Positions 21,436-43,006 of a stretch of DNA of 47,797 nt are shown here, one piece after another. A program made the position numbers and the translations under genes. Source of the stretch: a virus. The stretch lies in UHGV virus genome UHGV-0177318. One strand, written 5' to 3'. Numbering within the stretch: the stretch's first letter is position 1; every line of letters begins with the position of its first letter. The notes below the pieces were generated by a model. The model was not told the DNA's origin, searched no databases, and saw nothing but the letters and a program-made list of their open reading frames with translations.

Positions 21436-21637
21436 ACAATACTCAGGCATCTAACAAGTAAAACGCCGCCCATCGCATGCAAGAATTTGCGGCGGCTAAA
21501 ATCTGCTCATTAAGAGTTACTGCCATAAAATTTACAAAACTCATAATTCGAAACGACATAGAAACTTAGAAACGAAACGGCGAAGCTTTAAGCATTCATC
21601 ACAGACCCTCTGTCTTGCGTGCATACTCAAATGAAAC

Positions 21638-21657
21638 TACTGTATATAAAAACAGTG
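21638..21657 (+). promoter_or_regulatory. LexA (SOS) box upstream of umuDC
   Basis: TACTGTATATAAAAACAGTG. It has the CTGT-N8-ACAG core and differs by about one base from the E. coli umuDC box as I recall it. It lies 16 nt upstream of the umuD ATG. Confidence 0.85.
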
Positions 21658-21672
21658 TTTGAGGTATGCAAC

Positions 21673-22092
21673 ATGGAATTTATCAGGCCTGCAGAACTGC
21701 GAGAAATTATAGCTCTCCCGCTTTTCAGTGACTTAGTGCAGTGTGGTTTCCCAAGCCCAGCGGCTGATTACGTTGAACAGCGCATCGATCTCAATGAGTT
21801 ACTTGTTGCTCACCCGAGCTCAACGTATTTCGTCAAAGCCGCGGGCGATTCTATGATCGAAGCCGGGATCAGCGACGGTGATCTGCTGGTAGTGGACAGC
21901 TCCAGGACTGCTGAGCATGGTGACATTGTCATCGCTGCGGTGGAAGGGGAGTTCACTGTTAAACGCCTGCAGCTGCGCCCGAACGTGCAACTAAACCCTA
22001 TGAACAGCGCCTACAGTCCGATAGTTATTGGCTGCGAAGATACGCTGGACGTTTTCGGCGTCGTGACTTTCATCGTTAAATCGGCGAGCTGA
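21673..22092 (+). CDS. umuD: UmuD, translesion polymerase V accessory subunit (S24 self-cleaving)
   Basis: 139 aa from [44 protein letters not shown]...GDSM...VKRL, nearly colinear with E. coli UmuD (139 aa). Confidence 0.95.
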
Positions 22093-22094
22093 AC

Positions 22095-23363
22095 ATGTTC
22101 GCGCTCTGTGATGTGAATTCGTTCTACGCATCATGCGAGACGGTGTTTCGGCCTGATTTGAGGGGGCGCCCGGTTGTCGTTCTCTCGAATAATGATGGCT
22201 GCGTAATTGCGCGCAGCGCCGAGGCCAAAGCCGCCGGAATTACCATGGGTGAGCCTTTCTTCAAGCAAAAGGAGCTTTTCCGGCGCGCTGGCGTTGTTTG
22301 CTTCAGCAGCAATTACGAGCTGTACGCTGATATGTCGAACCGGGTAATGACGACGCTGGAAGAAATGAGCCCTCGCGTCGAAATATATAGCATCGATGAA
22401 GCTTTTTGCGACCTTACTGGTGTTCGAAACTGCCGGGACCTGACAGAGTTTGGCAAAGAGATCCGCGCGACGGTTCTGAAGCGTACGCACCTGACTGTCG
22501 GGATTGGCATCGCGAAAAGTAAGACCCTTGCAAAGCTGGCAAATCACGCCGCCAAAAAATGGCAGCGTCAGACGGGCGGAGTTGTTGATTTGTCCAATAT
22601 CGATCGCCAGCGTCGGTTGTTGGCTATTGTGCCTGTGGAGGACGTATGGGGCGTCGGCAGGCGCATCAGTAAGAAGCTGAACGCCATGGGCATCAAAACG
22701 GCTCTGGACCTCTCAGAACAAAGCACATGGATTATCCGTAAACACTTTAACGTGGTACTCGAGCGAACGGTCCGGGAGTTGCGCGGCGAGCCTTGTCTTG
22801 ATCTGGAGGAGTTTGCACCAGCTAAGCAGGAAATCGTCTGCAGTCGGTCATTCGGTGAACGCGTTACCGAATACGAACAGATGCGGCAGGCTATTTGCAG
22901 CTATGCGGCGCGTGGTGCTGAAAAGCTTCGCGGCGAACATCAGTATTGCCGTTTTATCTCTGCGTTCGTGAAGACGTCACCTTTTGCCCTGAACGAGCCG
23001 TATTACGGCAACAGCGCGTCAGTGAAGCTTCTCACCCCCACTCAGGATTCCCGCGACATCATCAACGCCGCGGTAAAGTGCCTGGACAAAATCTGGAAGG
23101 ATGGGCACCGCTATCAAAAGGCTGGAATTATGCTGGGAGATTTTTTCAGTCAAGGGGTGGCACAGCTGAACCTTTTCGATGAGCACGCGCCGCGCGCTGG
23201 AAGCGATAAGTTGATGGATGTGCTCGATCACTTGAACGCGAAAGAAGGGAAAGGAACACTCTTCTTTGCCGGGCAGGGCATTCAACAGCAGTGGCAGATG
23301 AAGCGGCAGTTGCTTTCACCCCGATATACTACTCGCATATCAGATTTATTAATTGTGAAGTAA
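22095..23363 (+). CDS. umuC: UmuC, Y-family DNA polymerase V catalytic subunit
   Basis: 422 aa. [41 protein letters not shown]..., the same length and N-terminus as E. coli UmuC. Confidence 0.95.
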
Positions 23364-23388
23364 AAAGGCTGCTTAACGCAGCCTTTTT
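23362..23388. terminator. Bidirectional intrinsic terminator between umuC and the convergent Zn-ribbon ORF
   Basis: AAAAAGGCTGC-ttaac-GCAGCCTTTTT, with A5/T5 flanks that serve both strands. Confidence 0.8.
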
Positions 23389-23394
23389 AGTTAA

Positions 23395-23544
23395 TTAAGC
23401 AGCTTTTTTCTCGCTGCATTTGCAATGAGGGATAACAAAAACTTTCGCCTTTTTAGGGCGGATGATTTTACCATCCTTCATTACATAGGGCGTGAAGGTT
23501 ACTTCACACGAATTCCCACATTTTGGACAATAGCCAGTTTTCAT
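23395..23544 (-). CDS. Small (49 aa) Zn-ribbon-like protein, probably LexA-regulated; absent from the ORF track
   Basis: MKTGYCPKCGNSCEVTFTPYVMKDGKIIRPKKAKVFVIPHCKCSEKKAA (CxxC...CxC). SD GGAG lies 8 nt upstream of the ATG, a CTGT-N8-ACAG box 26 nt upstream, and a terminator downstream. Confidence 0.55.
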   Translation of the reverse strand: MKTGYCPKCGNSCEVTFTPYVMKDGKIIRPKKAKVFVIPHCKCSEKKAA

Positions 23545-23569
23545 GTGAGATCTCCTATGTAAATGTACA

Positions 23570-23589
23570 GCCTGTAAATCTAAACAGAT
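23570..23589 (-). promoter_or_regulatory. LexA-like box upstream of the 49-aa ORF
   Basis: gcCTGTAAATCTAAACAGat. The core is perfect and the flanks are non-consensus. Confidence 0.55.
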
Positions 23590-23697
23590 TGCACCTTGTT
23601 AGGAGAACCACTATACTTTTAGCCGTCAAGCATTTTGTGTAGCGGTAGATTTCTCCATACACACCGAGTTATGCGTCAACATAGCTCGCCCCCTAAG

Positions 23698-23723
23698 AAG
23701 CCCTGCGTCAACAGGGCTTTTTT
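23698..23723. terminator. Terminator hairpin after the XRE/ImmA operon
   Basis: AAGCCCTG-cgtcaa-CAGGGCTT immediately after the ImmA stop, with a T6 run on the + side. Confidence 0.55.
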
Positions 23724-24205
23724 CAATAAAATTCAAAGCAAAGCTGTGCTGTTTGATAGCCCAATTTATCGAGCATCGTTTCTGCGAAAAGATCCGCCTG
23801 CCATTCAGAATCTTCATTTTGTTCCGGCATGGCATTCGCAAAGTGTAAGGCTGGCTTATGTTGTAGTAGCAAGTGCCCGAGCTCATGGAATATAACAAAT
23901 AACGCTGATCGTTCACCGCCACATGCCATTTCATAGATATGGTTTGGAACCCTGATAGTCAGTTTGTCAGGTTCACAGTGTCCAATCGTTAGACCCAGCG
24001 TTTCCTGAAACCATTCGTCATCATCCATTGGATCGAGGACAATATTCCATTGAGATAATGTTTCCAGCGCTACGTCAAATCTGCGCGGTCTACGCCGGTA
24101 TTTATACTTACTAGTAAATCCGAGTGCAAAGCAAGCATTTACAGCTATCGCTTTAATTTCCATTTCACTCAGAGGACGAACACGTGTACCGCGCATTAAA
24201 TGCAT
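23723..24205 (-). CDS. ImmA/IrrE-family zinc metallopeptidase (COG2856)
   Basis: 160 aa with HEXXH in VIFHELGHLLLQH. It lies immediately downstream of an XRE HTH gene, the canonical ImmR/ImmA-type pairing. Confidence 0.8.
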   Translation of the reverse strand: MHLMRGTRVRPLSEMEIKAIAVNACFALGFTSKYKYRRRPRRFDVALETLSQWNIVLDPMDDDEWFQETLGLTIGHCEPDKLTIRVPNHIYEMACGGERSALFVIFHELGHLLLQHKPALHFANAMPEQNEDSEWQADLFAETMLDKLGYQTAQLCFEFY

Positions 24206-24222
24206 AACAGTTTCCTAAGCAG

Positions 24223-24582
24223 TTATTTTTTGTTGATTTCTGCAAGTAATTCTGCAAATTTTTTTAATTCTTCATGGGTGAATTCCGATTTTGCAAAACC
24301 AGCAACAAGCATTTGTTGTTGCTTTGGTAAACCTTCAATAGGTACCAATTCATTCGCGATAGAAGCTAAAACATCGAGATCATCAATGTAATAACCTTGC
24401 GCTGCAAAAAGTTCATTGATTGCCGTTACCCATTTCTCTGGTATTTTTTTAGTCCCTGTTTCGAGCCCGCTTAGAAAAGCAGGTGTTGTTCCTAAAGCCT
24501 TTGCCATTGTAAGCAAAGTATAACCAGTATCGATCCGAGCTTTCCTTACGGCCTTTCCGAAATCAGTAAGAGCCATAGTCAT
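24223..24582 (-). CDS. XRE-family helix-turn-helix transcriptional regulator
   Basis: 119 aa. The N-terminal FGKAVRKARIDTGYTLLTMAKALGTTPAFLSGLETG is a Cro/CI-type HTH. Confidence 0.8.
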   Translation of the reverse strand: MTMALTDFGKAVRKARIDTGYTLLTMAKALGTTPAFLSGLETGTKKIPEKWVTAINELFAAQGYYIDDLDVLASIANELVPIEGLPKQQQMLVAGFAKSEFTHEELKKFAELLAEINKK

Positions 24583-24681
24583 ATCCTCAGTGCTTTCATT
24601 GTGGCTTACGCCAGATGTTCTAAATATACTCTAACCATAAAAAAAGTAAACTCATCAAGAAAAATAAATTAACCAAAAAGG

Positions 24682-25353
24682 TTAAGTTATTATTTCTATT
24701 AGATTTTTACCTTGATTTCTGGCGTTTCCAACCGCGCGTGTAACAGCGTGCCAGATAAACTTGTCGGCAGGCACTGCGCCGTCGGCTGCTATCTCTTCAG
24801 CTTCTTTCCCGCCTATATCCTGACGTATCCACTCGCGAGCCGCTTCCGGTGACAGAACCAGTGGCCGGCGATCGTGAATATCGACCAGACCTTTATCAGC
24901 TGCAGATGTCACGATGAGAAAACCTTCAGCTTCGTCTCCACGCTCAAATGGTGTGCTGCCGATAGCCGCCATAAATATTGGCTGGCCGTCGGCCCGGTGA
25001 ATGAAGTAGGGCTGTTTCTTGTCTGCTTCCTTCTTCCATTCGAACCAGCCATCCGCAAAGCAGATCGCCCGGCCATGTTGCCAGAGAGGCTTGAACATTC
25101 GGCTGGTGGCCGCCGTCTCGACGCGTGCGTTAATCAGTGGCGGTTTATCCCACCACTCGGGCGCGTAAGACCACAGGACTGGATCAAGATGCAGCTGCTC
25201 GTTGCGTTCGCTCAGGAGCAGCACCTTGGTACCGGGCGAGACGTTGTACCGGCCTATAGGTTCCGGGTCATACGCAATGTCACGATCGGCTTCATCGGCC
25301 AAGTATGCCAGATATTCTTCACGGGTTTGGGCTTGTGCAAAACGTCCACACAC
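24682..25353 (-). CDS. yedK: SOS-response-associated peptidase (SRAP/YedK-like abasic-site processing protein)
   Basis: 223 aa starting MCGRFAQAQTREEYLAYL (catalytic Cys2). It is colinear with E. coli YedK as I recall it (PLINARVETAATSRMFKPLWQHGRAICFADGWFEWKKE...). Confidence 0.9.
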   Translation of the reverse strand: MCGRFAQAQTREEYLAYLADEADRDIAYDPEPIGRYNVSPGTKVLLLSERNEQLHLDPVLWSYAPEWWDKPPLINARVETAATSRMFKPLWQHGRAICFADGWFEWKKEADKKQPYFIHRADGQPIFMAAIGSTPFERGDEAEGFLIVTSAADKGLVDIHDRRPLVLSPEAAREWIRQDIGGKEAEEIAADGAVPADKFIWHAVTRAVGNARNQGKNLIEIIT

Positions 25354-25533
25354 AGGAACCTCCAGTCAGTAAGACTGAAAGTATAGGGCAGGGAGAAAAA
25401 GTAGTGTGCGCTGGTTAAGTCCTACAAACGGATTCGCGCTGATTATGCTAATGAGGATGAAATGCGTAAAGCGATGCGTTGTGAAACTGGAAGGAGCTAC
25501 GCAAAGTTGCGACAATGCCAAAAGAGAAAGCTA

Positions 25534-25555
25534 AACCCGGTAGGGGATCCGGGTT
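25534..25555 (-). terminator. Hairpin downstream of dinI
   Basis: AACCCGG-N8-CCGGGTT, 24 nt after the dinI stop. The U-tract is weak. Confidence 0.4.
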
Positions 25556-25578
25556 CGCTGTGATGACAATATGGAAAT

Positions 25579-25818
25579 TCATTCATTAGTAAGCCACATA
25601 TCAGACTCTTCAAACATATCCTCCAGCATACGGTTCAACTTTTCACGGTCACTTTTGCTGGCATCACTATTCAATCCGTTAGCCTGCATAGGTTTCACCT
25701 TCACTTCAGCATCAGGGAATATGCTATGCACTCGCCTCGTCAGCTCAGCCAAAATAATTTCTCTGGCGCCATCCAAGCCCTGGACATTTCGCTTATCGTA
25801 AACCAACTCAACAAACAT
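25579..25818 (-). CDS. dinI: DinI-family DNA-damage-inducible protein
   Basis: 79 aa. The pattern ..LAELTRRVHSIFPDAEVKVKP...EKLNRMLEDMFEESDMWLTNE parallels E. coli DinI (ELSRRIQYAFPD...ILQETWESADDWFVSE). A LexA box lies upstream. Confidence 0.85.
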   Translation of the reverse strand: MFVELVYDKRNVQGLDGAREIILAELTRRVHSIFPDAEVKVKPMQANGLNSDASKSDREKLNRMLEDMFEESDMWLTNE

Positions 25819-25857
25819 AACAGTCTCCTTAATCTCTGTGAGAGGAAGCTATATTTT

Positions 25858-25877
25858 TACTGTAAATATATACAGTG
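25858..25877 (-). promoter_or_regulatory. LexA (SOS) box upstream of dinI
   Basis: TACTGTAAATATATACAGTG, 40 nt upstream of the dinI start codon. Confidence 0.85.
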
Positions 25878-25972: not shown

Positions 25973-26029
25973 GTAAGAAAACTACCAATAAAAAAACCAG
26001 CCATAAGAGGCTGGTTTTCAATGTATTTT

Positions 26030-26075
26030 TGGTCGGCACGAGAGGATTTGAACCTCCGACCCCCGACACCCCATG
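26030..26075 (-). other. attP core: 46-nt 3' portion of tRNA-Pro(GGG) (proL-type), not a complete tRNA
   Basis: The reverse complement, CATGGGGTGTCGGGGGTCGGAGGTTCAAATCCTCTCGTGCCGACCA, matches the anticodon loop to CCA end of E. coli proL as I recall it. The sequence 5' of it diverges (no D-arm or acceptor 5' half). A tRNA-downstream terminator hairpin lies at about 25994..26016, and int is adjacent. Confidence 0.85.
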
Positions 26076-26129: not shown

Positions 26130-26149
26130 GACTGTATATGCAAACAGTG
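26130..26149. promoter_or_regulatory. LexA-like box in the attP arm between the core and int
   Basis: gACTGTATATGCAAACAGTg, with a perfect CTGT-N8-ACAG core. A TTGACT hexamer overlaps its left edge. Confidence 0.5.
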
Positions 26150-26211: not shown

Positions 26212-27405
26212 TCACCCGGCTTTAAAGACAATTTCAGCATGAGGAACTTCTACCCATTCCACATGGTTCTGGGTATAAACTTTTGTCGATTTTGCATCAC
26301 TATGGGCCATCCTTGCCTGCGGATCGATACCTTGTCTTTCGAAAATATGAGCCGCCAGCGCTCTAATCTCGTGGAAAGTTGGCCTTTCTTTGATAGGTAA
26401 TTCTGCCGCTACACCTATCCGGTCCCGCAGCTCTGAAAATGCCCTGCTCAAATAATCAGGGGCCACCTGTGTTGGGTGGTTAACTTCCTTGCTTATCGGA
26501 TTGCTTCTCTTTTCCAGAAGCCGGTGAATAACATAAGGACTGGCCACATTGTCTCTGCTGTTGTCGATGATCTCTTTCAGGGCCCTGCCGATCGGAATAG
26601 CGACGTGTGAAGCCTCTTTGTGCTGCACTTTTTGCCGATGAATGTAAAGCGTTCCGAATATGCCAGCCTCCTCCTGATCGAACCATACACAGCCGCAAAC
26701 CCCTTCTTGAGGTTCCTTGATCGAGTACCGGATCCGGGAAACTTCCAGGCGCGCTTGCGTAGTTTGTATGGCAAGGTCCATTGCAGTCTTCAGCCAAGGT
26801 TCAGCAGCTGCATGTATGGCCAGGAACTGTTCCAAAGTAAGTCGCCGGCGGACCTTTTTATCGACACGCCGCATTTTTTTCCGTGTTGCAGGGTTATCCA
26901 TCATTAGCGATTCATCAACAGCATAAGAGAATAGCTTTTTCAGGAAGCTAACTTTTCGGTTCTGAACATTGGCCGACGATTCAGAATGGTAATTTCGTAT
27001 GTAGGCATTTACGTGCTCAAGCTCAATATCGCATGCGGGTATGTTATTAAAAAATTCTTTAACCCTGATGGCATCATTATTCCAATCGTCAAGTGTGCTT
27101 TTAGACGGCTGCTCATCTTTGATTGCTCTCTCCATAATGCGATCAACATGTTCAGAAAACGGGTGGGCTTCACCATTCAGCCCTCCCGATTCCCGAATTA
27201 ATGAATCTATCGATGGTGTATTTTCAGGGCGCATCCTCAGGTTATATTCTCGGGCGATGGCGATAGCCATTACTCGATCCGAACCGAGAGTTTTCTTTTT
27301 CCCAGTTATAAGCGTGAACTTATACACGCCACGATCTTTATCAAAAAAAAGATAATCAGGAAGGTGGCGGTATTCTTTTTTTCGTGGCCTTGCTGCCATG
27401 GTCAA
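26212..27405 (-). CDS. int: Tyrosine integrase
   Basis: 397 aa. C-terminal catalytic region TFHEIRALAAHIFERQG...AHSDAKSTKVYTQNH (H-x-x-R ... Y). Adjacent to attP and xis. Confidence 0.92.
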   Translation of the reverse strand: MTMAARPRKKEYRHLPDYLFFDKDRGVYKFTLITGKKKTLGSDRVMAIAIAREYNLRMRPENTPSIDSLIRESGGLNGEAHPFSEHVDRIMERAIKDEQPSKSTLDDWNNDAIRVKEFFNNIPACDIELEHVNAYIRNYHSESSANVQNRKVSFLKKLFSYAVDESLMMDNPATRKKMRRVDKKVRRRLTLEQFLAIHAAAEPWLKTAMDLAIQTTQARLEVSRIRYSIKEPQEGVCGCVWFDQEEAGIFGTLYIHRQKVQHKEASHVAIPIGRALKEIIDNSRDNVASPYVIHRLLEKRSNPISKEVNHPTQVAPDYLSRAFSELRDRIGVAAELPIKERPTFHEIRALAAHIFERQGIDPQARMAHSDAKSTKVYTQNHVEWVEVPHAEIVFKAG

Positions 27406-41953: not shown

Positions 41954-43006
41954 ATGAAAAATACTGTAAATATAAACAGTGTTGAGCTTGTCAACGCTGA
42001 CTGCCTGCAATACCTCGCAACCCTCCCAGATAACACCATCGACCTTATTGTTACGGATCCGCCTTATTTTAAGGTGAAGCCGAACGGCTGGGATAATCAG
42101 TGGAATGGTGACGCCGACTATCTTCGCTGGCTTGATATGTGTCTTGCCCAGTTCTGGCGAGTGCTTAAGCCTGCCGGCAGCCTGTATTTGTTTTCAGGTC
42201 ACCGACTTGCATCCCATATTGAGATCATGATGCGTGAACGCTTCAACGTCATGAACCACATTATCTGGGCGAAGCCATCAGGGCGCTGGAACGGGTGTAA
42301 TAAAGAAAGCCTGCGCTCTTACTTTCCCGCGACGGAACGCATCCTTTTCGCTGAGCATTATCAGGGGCCATATAAGCCGAAAAGCGACGGATTTGCTGAG
42401 AAAAGCAACGAGGTCAAACAGCACGTCATGGCTCCGTTAATCACCTACTTTCGGGAAGCACGAGCCGAACTGGGGGTCACGTCCAGGCAAATAGCTGACG
42501 CCACCGGAAAGAAAAATATGGCGTCTCACTGGTTCGGTGCCAGTCAGTGGCAACTACCGAACGAGCAGGATTACGAAAAGCTGCAGGAATTGTTCACTCA
42601 GATCGCCATTGAGAAGCACCGCGCCTCTGAACTCAAAGCACCGCATCACCAGCTGGTGGCCACATGGCATTCGTTGAACCGGAAATACCTTGATCTGCTG
42701 GAAGAGTACAAATCTCTTCGGCGGCATTTCTCTGTGACAGTAGCCGTGCCCTATACAGACGTCTGGACACATAAACCCGTCCAGTTCTATCCAGGCAAAC
42801 ACCCGTGCGAAAAGCCCGCTGATATGTTGCGGCAAATCATCAACGCCAGCAGCAGGCCCGGCGATGTGGTAGCTGATTTCTTTATGGGCTCGGGATCAAC
42901 TGTTAAAGCAGCCATTGAACTGGGCCGCCAGGCTATCGGCGTAGAACTGGAAGAGGAACGTTTCAACCAGACGGTAAGTGAGGTAAGGCAGCTGGCAGGG
43001 GAATAA
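41954..43006 (+). CDS. Beta-class N6-adenine/N4-cytosine DNA methyltransferase (DPPY, N6_N4_Mtase family)
   Basis: 350 aa. NADCLQYLATLPDNTIDLIVTDPPYF (motif IV first), then the C-terminal HPCEKP and FFMGSGST (motif I). Confidence 0.88.
   Translation: MKNTVNINSVELVNADCLQYLATLPDNTIDLIVTDPPYFKVKPNGWDNQWNGDADYLRWLDMCLAQFWRVLKPAGSLYLFSGHRLASHIEIMMRERFNVMNHIIWAKPSGRWNGCNKESLRSYFPATERILFAEHYQGPYKPKSDGFAEKSNEVKQHVMAPLITYFREARAELGVTSRQIADATGKKNMASHWFGASQWQLPNEQDYEKLQELFTQIAIEKHRASELKAPHHQLVATWHSLNRKYLDLLEEYKSLRRHFSVTVAVPYTDVWTHKPVQFYPGKHPCEKPADMLRQIINASSRPGDVVADFFMGSGSTVKAAIELGRQAIGVELEEERFNQTVSEVRQLAGE
41962..41981 (+). promoter_or_regulatory. LexA (SOS) box overlapping codons 3-10 of the DPPY methyltransferase
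   Basis: TACTGTAAATATAAACAGTG, one base different from the dinI box at 25858. Confidence 0.75.

Follow-up and report, generated by a model that had tools for sequence, protein, structure and literature searches.

Does a perfect LexA-like palindrome in front of a small open reading frame (ORF) make that ORF an SOS gene? The question is raised by the virus genome UHGV-0177318 (47,797 nucleotides, referred to throughout as the window), in which a minus-strand ORF of 49 codons at 23395..23544 is preceded by a CTGT-N8-ACAG core. A preliminary description of the locus had proposed that the ORF possesses its own LexA-repressed promoter at 23560-23600 and encodes either an SOS-induced small regulator, akin to the Tum or Gifsy antirepressors, or an SOS toxin. 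Our comparative analysis points to a different organization, namely an antisense-gated cassette that carries a small cysteine-rich protein as payload, whose sense RNA would arise by read-through and whose leader would hide the Shine-Dalgarno (SD) sequence. We put the probability of this reading at about 0.55.

The small ORF is a conserved gene

23395..23544, minus strand: small ORF with ATG start, 49 amino acids (aa), MKTGYCPKCGNSCEVTFTPYVMKDGKIIRPKKAKVFVIPHCKCSEKKAA, taken from the sequence and the ORF list
23552..23555, minus strand: SD motif GGAG of the small ORF, part of AGGAGA, with a 7-nt spacer to the ATG

Judged by its conservation, the 49-codon frame is a genuine gene under strong purifying selection. 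The ORF is present with exactly the amino acid sequence that had been reported, and so is the GGAG motif, which is separated from the ATG by 7 nt. Homologues identified by protein search share 60-98% identity. Six genome loci were available, in Enterobacter wuhouensis (100% identical), Pantoea, Providencia, Rheinheimera (two loci) and Pseudoalteromonas, and 80 loci were recovered from IMG/VR with the protein alone as anchor. The ORF occurs in 66 distinct nucleotide versions, which encode 46 proteins of 40-50 aa, and the median pairwise ratio of nonsynonymous to synonymous substitution rates (dN/dS) is 0.093 (471 pairs, 49-aa set). The homologue search that the preliminary description had proposed found the frame intact in relatives; all three substitutions separating the window from the ORF of Klebsiella phage MK416022 (a prophage record, 93% identical over the region) are synonymous.

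Invariant in the protein alignment are M1, G4, C6, K8, C9, C13, F17, G25, P39 and C41, and a fifth cysteine is located at position 43 or 44. The CxxC...CxC pattern, the usable SD sequence and the conserved frame all speak for a real gene, whose product is probably zinc-binding. The protein is basic and hydrophilic, with an isoelectric point (pI) of 9.5, a grand average of hydropathicity (GRAVY) of -0.35 and 11 lysine plus arginine residues, and its AlphaFold2 model is beta-rich (predicted local distance difference test score 77.8). The family is small, comprising about 20 short clusters among 1.84 billion representatives. Searches of Pfam, PHROGs, PADLOC and NCBIfam returned nothing above threshold, the only match being a sub-threshold one to zf_Tbcl_2, and none of the solved folds resembled the protein. 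In the searches made, it thus resembles no characterised protein in sequence, family or fold.

The ORF had been called unannotated. This holds for the homologue of Escherichia coli in RefSeq but not for the identical 49-aa protein of Klebsiella phage MK416022, which is annotated as 'hypothetical protein' (QBP07755.1). The NCBI entry for the exact protein reads 'MULTISPECIES: hypothetical protein [Enterobacteriaceae]' and covers 433 contigs, and a tblastn search of 50,697 phage records matched two Klebsiella prophage-derived records and no others. The E. coli homologue belongs to the nin region of lambdoid prophages, Stx2 prophages among them, and is found, without RefSeq annotation, in about 56 of 5,426 complete genomes. 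At one such locus (L065, E. coli CP027371, 5115-6720, nin region of an Stx2 prophage) hokD lies directly upstream of the unit formed by a helix-turn-helix (HTH) gene, immA and the cassette, and RefSeq is blank across the 430 bp that contain leader and small ORF. A 48-aa NCBI protein (P0003) is identical to the window protein through residue 31 and then diverges (...PKRRKFCYPSLQVQREKAA); it looks like a frameshifted, decaying copy.

A covarying leader on the ORF strand

The ORF is separated by 178 nt from an upstream gene for an ImmA/IrrE-type metallopeptidase (ImmA). This stretch, here called the leader, contains the following elements:

23665..23688, minus strand: hairpin hp2, CGAGCUAUG-UUGACG-CAUAACUCG
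23653..23659, minus strand: UAUGGAG, which mimics the SD (anti-anti-SD), can base-pair with the anti-SD and forms the outer part of helix P3
23607..23646, minus strand: inner helix of P3, ACCGCUACAC (23637-23646) with GUAUAGUGGU (23607-23616)
23602-23616, minus strand: GUAUAGUGGUUCUCC, the strand that holds the anti-SD and the 3' side of P3
23602..23609, minus strand: anti-SD GGUUCUCC, nearly invariant across families
23565..23594, minus strand: hairpin P4 between anti-SD and SD, GUGCA...UGUAC enclosing a CUGU...ACAG stem

Comparison of related loci indicates that the leader is a conserved, covarying structure on the ORF strand. It is recognisable even where ImmA is only 48% identical, and its conservation is far above that expected of intergenic DNA. 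A five-helix structure was scored on an alignment of 35 sequences, with controls in which pairing partners were slid by 1-3 columns and with 500 shuffles. In the five-helix model 91.7% of cells are paired, compared with 34-47% in the slid controls, and 15 pairs change on both sides, compared with 5-10; none of the 500 shuffles reached the observed covariation. In helix 2 (hp2) six of eight pairs change on both sides, as do four of six in helix 5 (P4). Since G-U and U-G pairs outnumber A-C and C-A combinations by 75 to 5, the structure is assigned to the ORF strand. The same one-sidedness is seen in a long-range helix, whose pair 86-120 is GC in 13 sequences, GU in 12, AU in 10 and AC in none; in a more diverse alignment of 42 sequences the same pair (76-110) is GC in 21, AU in 14 and GU in five. 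The outer part of P3 (helix 3, columns 71-75 with 124-128) is 100% paired, with G-U (25) versus A-U (6) as sole variation. In L104-type sequences the P3 helix reads AUAAC/GUUGU, and in the window its inner part encloses a small hairpin with the loop UUGACG (23624-23629). P4 is retained everywhere, in some lineages without any LexA box, for example as CGCAAAU...AUUUGCG.

The anti-SD can pair either with UAUGGAG or with the SD region, the latter in the window as UCUCCUA with UAGGAGA. The corresponding Pantoea pairing is GGUUCUCC with GGAGAACU, and in the family whose protein begins MANGICPKCG the anti-SD is GGUUAACCUG, opposite an SD region that reads CAGGUAA. In the minimum-free-energy fold of the window leader the SD is paired with the anti-SD, and the folds of family members are split between the SD-paired and the P3 state, as would be expected for a two-state switch, where folds of different members should fall on either side. 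Rfam searches yielded no match at E values up to 1 for 1 kb, at E values up to 10 for the 191-nt element, or at the gathering threshold for the whole window. Specifically, no C4, IsrK, istR, OrzO-P or Sok-type RNA was detected at the gathering threshold, and the few weak hits below it were chance or terminator matches, those to OrzO-P and istR concerning terminators only. A leader peptide was also considered (35-aa ORF at 23555..23662, GTG-TAT-GGA) and was discarded in view of 1-2-nt indels that break its frame between families.

A predicted antisense promoter embedded in the leader

23589..23617, plus strand: antisense promoter of the sigma-70 type, -35 TTGCAC (23589-23594), 17-nt spacer, -10 TATACT (23612-23617), reading away from the ORF
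23624..23723, plus strand: predicted cis-antisense RNA of about 100 nt, from the promoter as far as the terminator formed by hp1 with its U-run (23718-23723)
23698..23719, both strands: hairpin hp1, AAGCCCUG-UUGACG-CAGGGCUU, left-hand end of the cassette

Nothing else in the region is as strongly conserved as a predicted antisense promoter of the sigma-70 type. In 67 distinct upstream regions, which had been anchored on the protein only, the motif TTGnnn-17-TAnnnT is present on the antisense strand of 66 and on the sense strand of none, as against about 4% of shuffles. It is kept in leaders that cannot otherwise be aligned (TTGATT-17-TATACT in L077, TTGATA-17-TAGTAT in L089 and TTGCAG-17-TACAAT in L116). 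Across the leader of about 150 nt in the 42-sequence alignment, the invariant positions are TTG of the -35 element, T, A and the final T of the -10 element, one G and the ATG; the conserved promoter positions are those that matter most in sigma-70 promoters. The one leader of the 67 without the motif belongs to the first of two tandem copies in Providencia rustigianii (L004, 4504-5129), where the entire cassette, with twin hairpins, leader, LexA box and small ORF, is duplicated.

The predicted antisense RNA, whose ends follow from the positions of promoter and terminator (start near 23622-23625), has a fold with three stem-loops (-34.7 kcal/mol, z = -5.25). Its complement in the leader covers the 5' two-thirds, comprising hp1, hp2, UAUGGAG and ACCGCUACAC, and does not include the anti-SD, which sits in the promoter spacer. 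Likewise, the inner helix of P3 is possible in the sense RNA only, since its 3' strand lies inside the antisense promoter. An antisense RNA acting alone, with no functional structure in the sense RNA, was set aside on account of this use of promoter bases by P3 and of the one-sided G-U pairs.

By contrast with the antisense strand, the ORF strand of the leader has no recognisable conserved promoter. No sigma-70 promoter was found at or upstream of the LexA-like box in the window, none is conserved across 66 related loci, and no conserved sense promoter was detected within 330 nt upstream of the ORF. Strict and relaxed scans for a sense promoter hidden in the leader gave no candidate at a conserved position.

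LexA-like boxes beside the predicted antisense promoter

23572..23587, both strands: LexA-like box 1 with a perfect CTGT-N8-ACAG core (20-mer 23570-23589), forming the tip of P4; CTGTTTAGATTTACAG on the minus and CTGTAAATCTAAACAG on the plus strand
23555..23570, both strands: second LexA-like box, degenerate (minus strand CTGTACATTTACATAG, with ACAT for ACAG), 1 nt from box 1 and overlapping the SD

The core described earlier is indeed present; counted from the A of the ATG, its 20-mer is located 26-45 nt upstream. The window contains five CTGT-N8-ACAG cores (0.53 expected; none of 100 shuffles reached five). Sites were scored with a weight matrix made from 21 E. coli LexA sites (range 12.7-26.7 bits, median 20.5; validated-site consensus TACTGTATATATATACAGTA). 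Box 1 scores 12.6 bits, the other four cores of the window 18.9-25.5 and the best chance match 11.3, while the second box scores 9.4. On these scores box 1 alone is barely above background; what supports it is the conservation of a box at the same position in relatives.

The corresponding box of relatives has scores of 10-18 bits, and about 10 families lack it. Perfect, AT-rich second boxes that overlap the SD occur in tandem in L008 (16.4 bits), L090 (16.6), L085 (14.0) and L011 (13.3). The presence of a second AT-rich box at a distance of 1 nt in independent families argues for selection for LexA binding in the tandem-box lineages. In Pantoea, CCGT...ACGG replaces the box, so that the hairpin is preserved and the LexA core lost. 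Rheinheimera, Pseudoalteromonas and several other families keep the ORF and have no LexA-like site. Where present, the box lies 1-2 nt from the antisense -35 element (1 nt upstream in the window), while the spacing between box and ATG ranges from -34 to -47.

The proposal of an SOS-like box belonging to the ORF thus survives in part. Many enterobacterial relatives do have a box here, in some cases a tandem pair with up to 16-18 bits, but no promoter of the ORF was found at the box. A LexA-controlled promoter of the ORF is not supported, in view of the low score of the site, its loss in several lineages and its fixed position relative to the antisense -35 element. A classical geometry of TTGACA, box and TATAGC is found in the same window at a dinI-like gene. 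The sequence comparison thus indicates that the ORF has no promoter of its own under the control of the box, and LexA input in this window appears weak at best.

Boundaries and genomic contexts of the cassette

23362..23388, both strands: bidirectional rho-independent terminator, AAAAAGGCTGC-GTTAA-GCAGCCTTTTT, right-hand end of the cassette
23723..24582, minus strand: upstream operon of an XRE-family HTH gene (24223-24582) and a gene for the ImmA/IrrE-type M78 metallopeptidase (23723-24205)

In the window the cassette spans about 360 bp (23362-23722) with the small ORF as its last element. From its sequence contexts we conclude that it is a portable prophage unit. It is hitherto undescribed and has no recognisable sense promoter of its own. 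At the right-hand end the terminator lies between the stop codons of the ORF (23395-23397) and of the convergent, plus-strand umuC gene (23361-23363). As had been suggested, this hairpin, with its flanking A-run and T-run on opposite sides, is a bidirectional terminator shared with umuC; a simple terminator scan of the window did not list it. All related cassettes have a terminator hairpin 10-35 nt past the ORF stop, and it is there that similarity between contexts ends.

At the other end, similarity between contexts starts exactly at the A-run and the GC-rich hairpin hp1. In the window hp1 is flanked by a U6 run on the plus strand (23718-23723) and by UUCUU on the minus strand, and it follows the ImmA stop codon (23723-23725) at 5 nt. 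An hp1 could be recognised at 60 loci; at about 50 of these the preceding gene, whose identity differs between contexts, has its stop codon end no more than 10 nt, and usually 1-5 nt, from the GC stem; at one locus the stop codon overlaps the GC stem by 4 nt. The orientation of the cassette is always that of the upstream gene.

The upstream operon of the window is identified by matches to Peptidase_M78 (1.3e-6) and to HTH_31/HTH_3 and by an HExxH motif in the 160-aa ImmA; a promoter-like site for it is located at 24650..24623. The preliminary description had pointed to the neighbouring XRE protein, and the gene order XRE-ImmA-small ORF is indeed found at all six genome loci. In IMG/VR, by contrast, leader and ORF are also located behind other operons, namely a HicA-HicB-orf146 operon, an uncharacterised three-gene operon, and genes of a family of 160-190-aa proteins. 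Members of this last family directly precede the cassette in L008, L078, L081 and L120; they share the C-terminal motif IPIPLR..L.V.I..LP.DLT..EA.RIS and have no significant match in a Pfam search.

In Stx1 phages (L008/L016; MG986485, 10216-10816) the leader follows cI-DUF3024-orf177 and precedes an unrelated 44-aa ORF, MAHDVNRDNFIYEHDKPVYVRSYCRIRFGELEHVRQHFRSYPSC (MAHDVNRDNF...), which NCBI lists as 'hypothetical' in Shigella, Salmonella, Klebsiella and Citrobacter. At these loci the shared leader comes with the antisense promoter and with tandem LexA boxes. Since the same leader fronts an unrelated ORF, the RNA part can be regarded as a swappable control module. Cassettes occur in Stx-converting E. 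coli phages and in Klebsiella and Enterobacter prophages, mostly unannotated or as 'hypothetical', and contigs with the cassette also carry proteins named by NCBI from Yersinia, Salmonella, Citrobacter and marine gammaproteobacteria. Searches of the literature brought up no account of such a unit.

Twin hairpin tops

The tops of hp1 and hp2 are identical over 10 nt, TGTTGACGCA (23704-23713 in hp1, 23672-23681 in hp2). The two tops are identical at 37 of 66 distinct loci, and other families have TGCGCTAACA, TGCTCTAACA, TGTTGGCACA, CTGAGAA or further sequences. As the identical tops change together between families, the two loops evolve in concert. In one pair of close relatives from IMG/VR, L071 and L072, both tops of the one are the reverse complements of those of the other (TGCGTCAACA and TGTTGACGCA), and the loops appear to have been inverted together. 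The loop type tracks neither the small protein nor the upstream genes, and the spacing of the repeat varies from 28 to 33 bp. No copies complementary to the repeated tops were found in the window or within several kilobases of any locus. Pairing of the hp1 and hp2 loops with the loop of the ORF terminator works in the window (UGCGUUAA) and fails in close relatives; this idea was dropped.

Other SOS-related features of the window

SOS-related cargo genes are clustered at the prophage end (21619-25875) and surround the XRE-ImmA-cassette unit. The cluster contains umuD and umuC (box at 21640), a gene for an SRAP/YedK-like protein (24682-25353) and the dinI-like gene (25579-25818), whose promoter has a LexA box at 25860 between TTGACA and TATAGC. 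A further box (41964-41979, TACTGTAAATATAAACAGTG, 23.8 bits) is placed not upstream of, but within the opening codons of, a 350-aa DNA methyltransferase-like ORF (41954-43006, plus strand; MKNTVNINSV...). Another (26132-26147, 18.9 bits) is located between the 3' end of the integrase gene (26212-27405, minus strand) and a sequence resembling the 3' end of a tRNA (about 26025-26075, minus strand, GGTTCAAATCC...GCCGACCA). Since ARAGORN calls no tRNA there, the latter sequence is probably the remnant of an attachment site.

A model for control of the cassette

According to the reading that we favour, the ORF would be transcribed only by read-through from the upstream operon, which is XRE-ImmA in the window. 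A ribosome terminating at the adjacent stop codon, 1-5 nt before hp1, would mask the 5' arm of hp1 and might thereby favour read-through, a step that draws on general knowledge of the size of the ribosome footprint and of the effect of ribosomes on nearby intrinsic terminators. If read-through is coupled to upstream translation in this way, the position of the cassette against the stop codons of unrelated genes would be explained. In the read-through RNA, GGUUCUCC would either sequester the SD (OFF) or be held by the upstream UAUGGAG/ACCGC strand (ON). The antisense RNA, about 100 nt long and ending at hp1, would pair with the 5' strand of P3 that is needed for the ON state, so that the anti-SD is released and translation shut down; this pairing may additionally trigger cleavage of the leader.

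LexA bound beside the antisense -35 element would act on the antisense promoter or block the read-through polymerase rather than act on a promoter of the ORF. That LexA, given a functional site, represses the antisense RNA is close to an even bet, and SOS induction would then lower the output of the small protein. A role of LexA as roadblock to the read-through polymerase, in which case SOS induction would raise the output as it does with tisB, strikes us as rather improbable. It is somewhat doubtful, though well worth keeping in mind, that the site in this window is too weak to matter at all.

Three silencing layers would precede the payload: a terminator abutting the stop codon, a bistable SD-sequestering leader, and a cis-antisense RNA whose two recognition loops are identical. 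The LexA boxes at the antisense promoter would be an addition made in enterobacterial lineages. Such an accumulation of silencing layers in front of a 49-codon gene suggests that the protein is harmful when over-made. Candidate targets are the neighbouring XRE/ImmA pair, SOS functions, cell division and translation. That we are dealing with a new family of portable cassettes, in which a zinc-ribbon-like mini-protein (or the unrelated 44-aa protein of the Stx1 phages) is subject to all three layers, is proposed tentatively, at somewhat less than even odds.

Several points weigh against this reading. The antisense RNA, the read-through and the switch are predictions, and all claims at the RNA level rest on comparative sequence analysis; moreover, the related sequences are of common ancestry, so that the counts overstate the number of independent events. 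The SD/anti-SD duplexes range from -7 to -14 kcal/mol, and those formed within a family (-9.6) are indistinguishable from those formed across families (-8.9). As both partners are almost invariant, this pairing is not provable by covariation. In the window the -35 element TTGCAC matches the consensus at three of six positions, and a promoter scan did not list it. The invariant promoter bases could in principle serve the sense RNA instead. At about 10 loci (L012 type) the upstream stop codon does not adjoin hp1, and hp1 looks like a fair terminator in the sense direction too, so that read-through may be rare. The protein is no membrane peptide of the kind found in most type I toxin-antitoxin systems; it is hydrophilic, basic and cysteine-rich. 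Finally, a simple cis-antisense model leaves the identity of the hp1 and hp2 tops unexplained. A cis-antisense RNA is complementary to its target by construction, and loop identity therefore needs a further reason; bivalent or cross-register kissing between sense and antisense hairpins is one possibility, though a speculative one.

Alternative explanations

The SOS promoter envisaged in the preliminary description has in its favour the perfect core with an adjoining degenerate second box, the boxes of 13-18 bits in relatives, some of them tandem and overlapping the SD, the wealth of true SOS genes in the window (umuDC, dinI-like, SRAP), and the -10-like sequences TATACA, TAAAAT or TATATA within the proximal box of some tandem-box families. 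Yet no sigma-70-like promoter is found on the ORF strand near the box in the window and none is conserved across families, and in the commonest, E. coli-type family a single box is followed by G/C-rich sequence without a -10 element. The box keeps its distance to the antisense -35 element and not to the ATG, its 12.6 bits contrast with 18.9-25.5 for the other boxes of the window, lineages without it keep both ORF and leader, and the dinI-like gene illustrates what a real LexA promoter looks like in this genome. We regard an own LexA-repressed promoter as quite unlikely. The opposite view, that the box is merely the palindromic stem of P4, offers no useful LexA binding site and leaves the cassette SOS-independent in this window, is also unlikely but deserves more credit. 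It fits the small distance between 12.6 bits and the best chance match of 11.3, a box centre that lacks the alternating AT typical of LexA sites, compensatory changes that keep the hairpin (CCGU..ACGG in Pantoea, CGCAAAU..AUUUGCG in Rheinheimera), a tip (U)GGGUU that is conserved even where CTG/CAG is lost, and the decay of the second box in the window to 9.4 bits. It does not account for the exact CTGT-N8-ACAG spacing retained in most enterobacterial families, nor for the canonical AT-rich second boxes, 1 nt away, of independent families, which have no obvious role in RNA structure. Moreover, two adjacent weak sites can bind LexA cooperatively, as is the case for colicin operators.

Two further explanations concern the repeated tops. 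If the leader were a processed immunity RNA of the P1 c4, P4 CI, N15 CA or Gifsy IsrK kind, acting from the same strand through its repeated loops and without any antisense RNA, the identical 10-nt tops on two hairpins and their concerted change would recall seqA and seqC of P4; the structure is on the sense strand, and the small ORF downstream would correspond to icd or orf45 of the known systems. Rfam, however, has no matching C4, IsrK or other model, even at E values up to 10 for the 191-nt element; no complement of the repeated tops exists in the window or within several kilobases of any locus, for which reason this explanation was set aside; and the invariant antisense promoter would be left unexplained. 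We consider it very improbable. The same holds, to an even higher degree, for conservation at the level of DNA, with the repeated TGTTGACGCA and the palindromes serving as operators for XRE or another DNA-binding protein and the RNA structure being a by-product. Direct repeats about 30 bp apart, the joint flip of both repeats between L071 and L072 and the HTH gene upstream would suit such operators. But the stems of hp2 show covariation over 8-9 bp even though their sequences differ entirely from family to family, the G-U pairs are strongly one-sided, the repeat spacing ranges from 28 to 33 bp, and one loop type is found behind unrelated upstream genes whereas different loop types are found behind the same genes.

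Comparison with known systems

By analogy, the layout resembles that of a type I toxin-antitoxin locus or of a small-protein locus under cis-antisense control. Type I systems with SOS input (tisB/istR-1, dinQ/agrB, symE/symR, hokE), which are often located on prophages, share with the prophage-borne cassette a small protein gene behind a long structured 5' leader, and LexA boxes in the control region. Their masking of the ribosome-binding site by the leader and their small RNA gene, which is encoded opposite to the leader and complementary to it, have predicted counterparts here; in symE/symR the antisense promoter is likewise embedded in the leader. In tisB, dinQ and symE, however, the LexA box overlaps the toxin promoter. 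As no dedicated sense promoter was found in the cassette, its LexA box cannot act in the same manner. Moreover, the predicted antisense RNA overlaps neither the SD nor the start codon, and no Rfam model of a type I antitoxin matches. Features that the cassette, as predicted, would have in common with hok/sok are an antisense promoter inside the mRNA leader, alternative long-range pairings that set access to the SD, and putative specificity-determining loops that differ between copies. Unlike hok/sok, the cassette has no coupling ORF of the mok type, no evidence of 5'-3' fold-back and no sequence or family similarity, and its sense RNA apparently comes from the upstream operon.

LexA-controlled antirepressors (186 Tum, GfoA/GfhA of Gifsy phages, AntC of N15) are also prophage-borne, associated with a LexA box and located outside the main immunity region. 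In their genes the LexA box covers the gene's own promoter, whereas no such promoter was found under the box here; in addition, the small protein is much smaller than Tum, and PHROGs and Pfam reveal no similarity. The analogy extends solely to being small, prophage-borne and near a LexA box. With P1 c4-icd-ant, P4 CI, N15 CA and Gifsy-1 IsrK-orf45-anrP the cassette has in common a structured prophage leader before a small ORF, a gating of translation by RNA pairing that is predicted here, and repeated specificity sequences that vary among related phages. The known RNAs, by contrast, arise by same-strand processing and bind complementary repeats, in cis or in trans; the cassette lacks such a repeat in the window and within several kilobases of its other loci, has an antisense promoter and is not matched by the Rfam models.

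Pairs of XRE and ImmA/IrrE (COG2856) proteins, such as ImmR/ImmA of ICEBs1, DdrO/IrrE and CapH/CapP of the cyclic-oligonucleotide-based anti-phage signalling system (CBASS), switch on downstream genes after DNA damage. The likeness is confined to the upstream neighbours, with weak capH/capP matches. Through these neighbours the upstream operon may be damage-responsive; however, the ImmA encoded here has only 160 aa and could hardly accommodate a sensor domain in addition to its peptidase core. Since unrelated operons also precede the cassette, it does not belong to the XRE-ImmA pair as a dedicated third component.

Implications

The locus carries a caution for the annotation of SOS genes. CTGT-N8-ACAG near a start codon need not indicate a LexA-controlled promoter; here it is also an RNA hairpin beside a promoter of the opposite strand. 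If the model holds, prophage biology would gain a new RNA-controlled small-protein module and a compact natural translational switch with an embedded antisense promoter, in which the concerted twin loops resemble specificity determinants. It would represent a new type I-like toxin-antitoxin or regulatory RNA family based on a structured RNA that is absent from Rfam, and the cassette may serve to time a host- or phage-directed activity relative to prophage induction.

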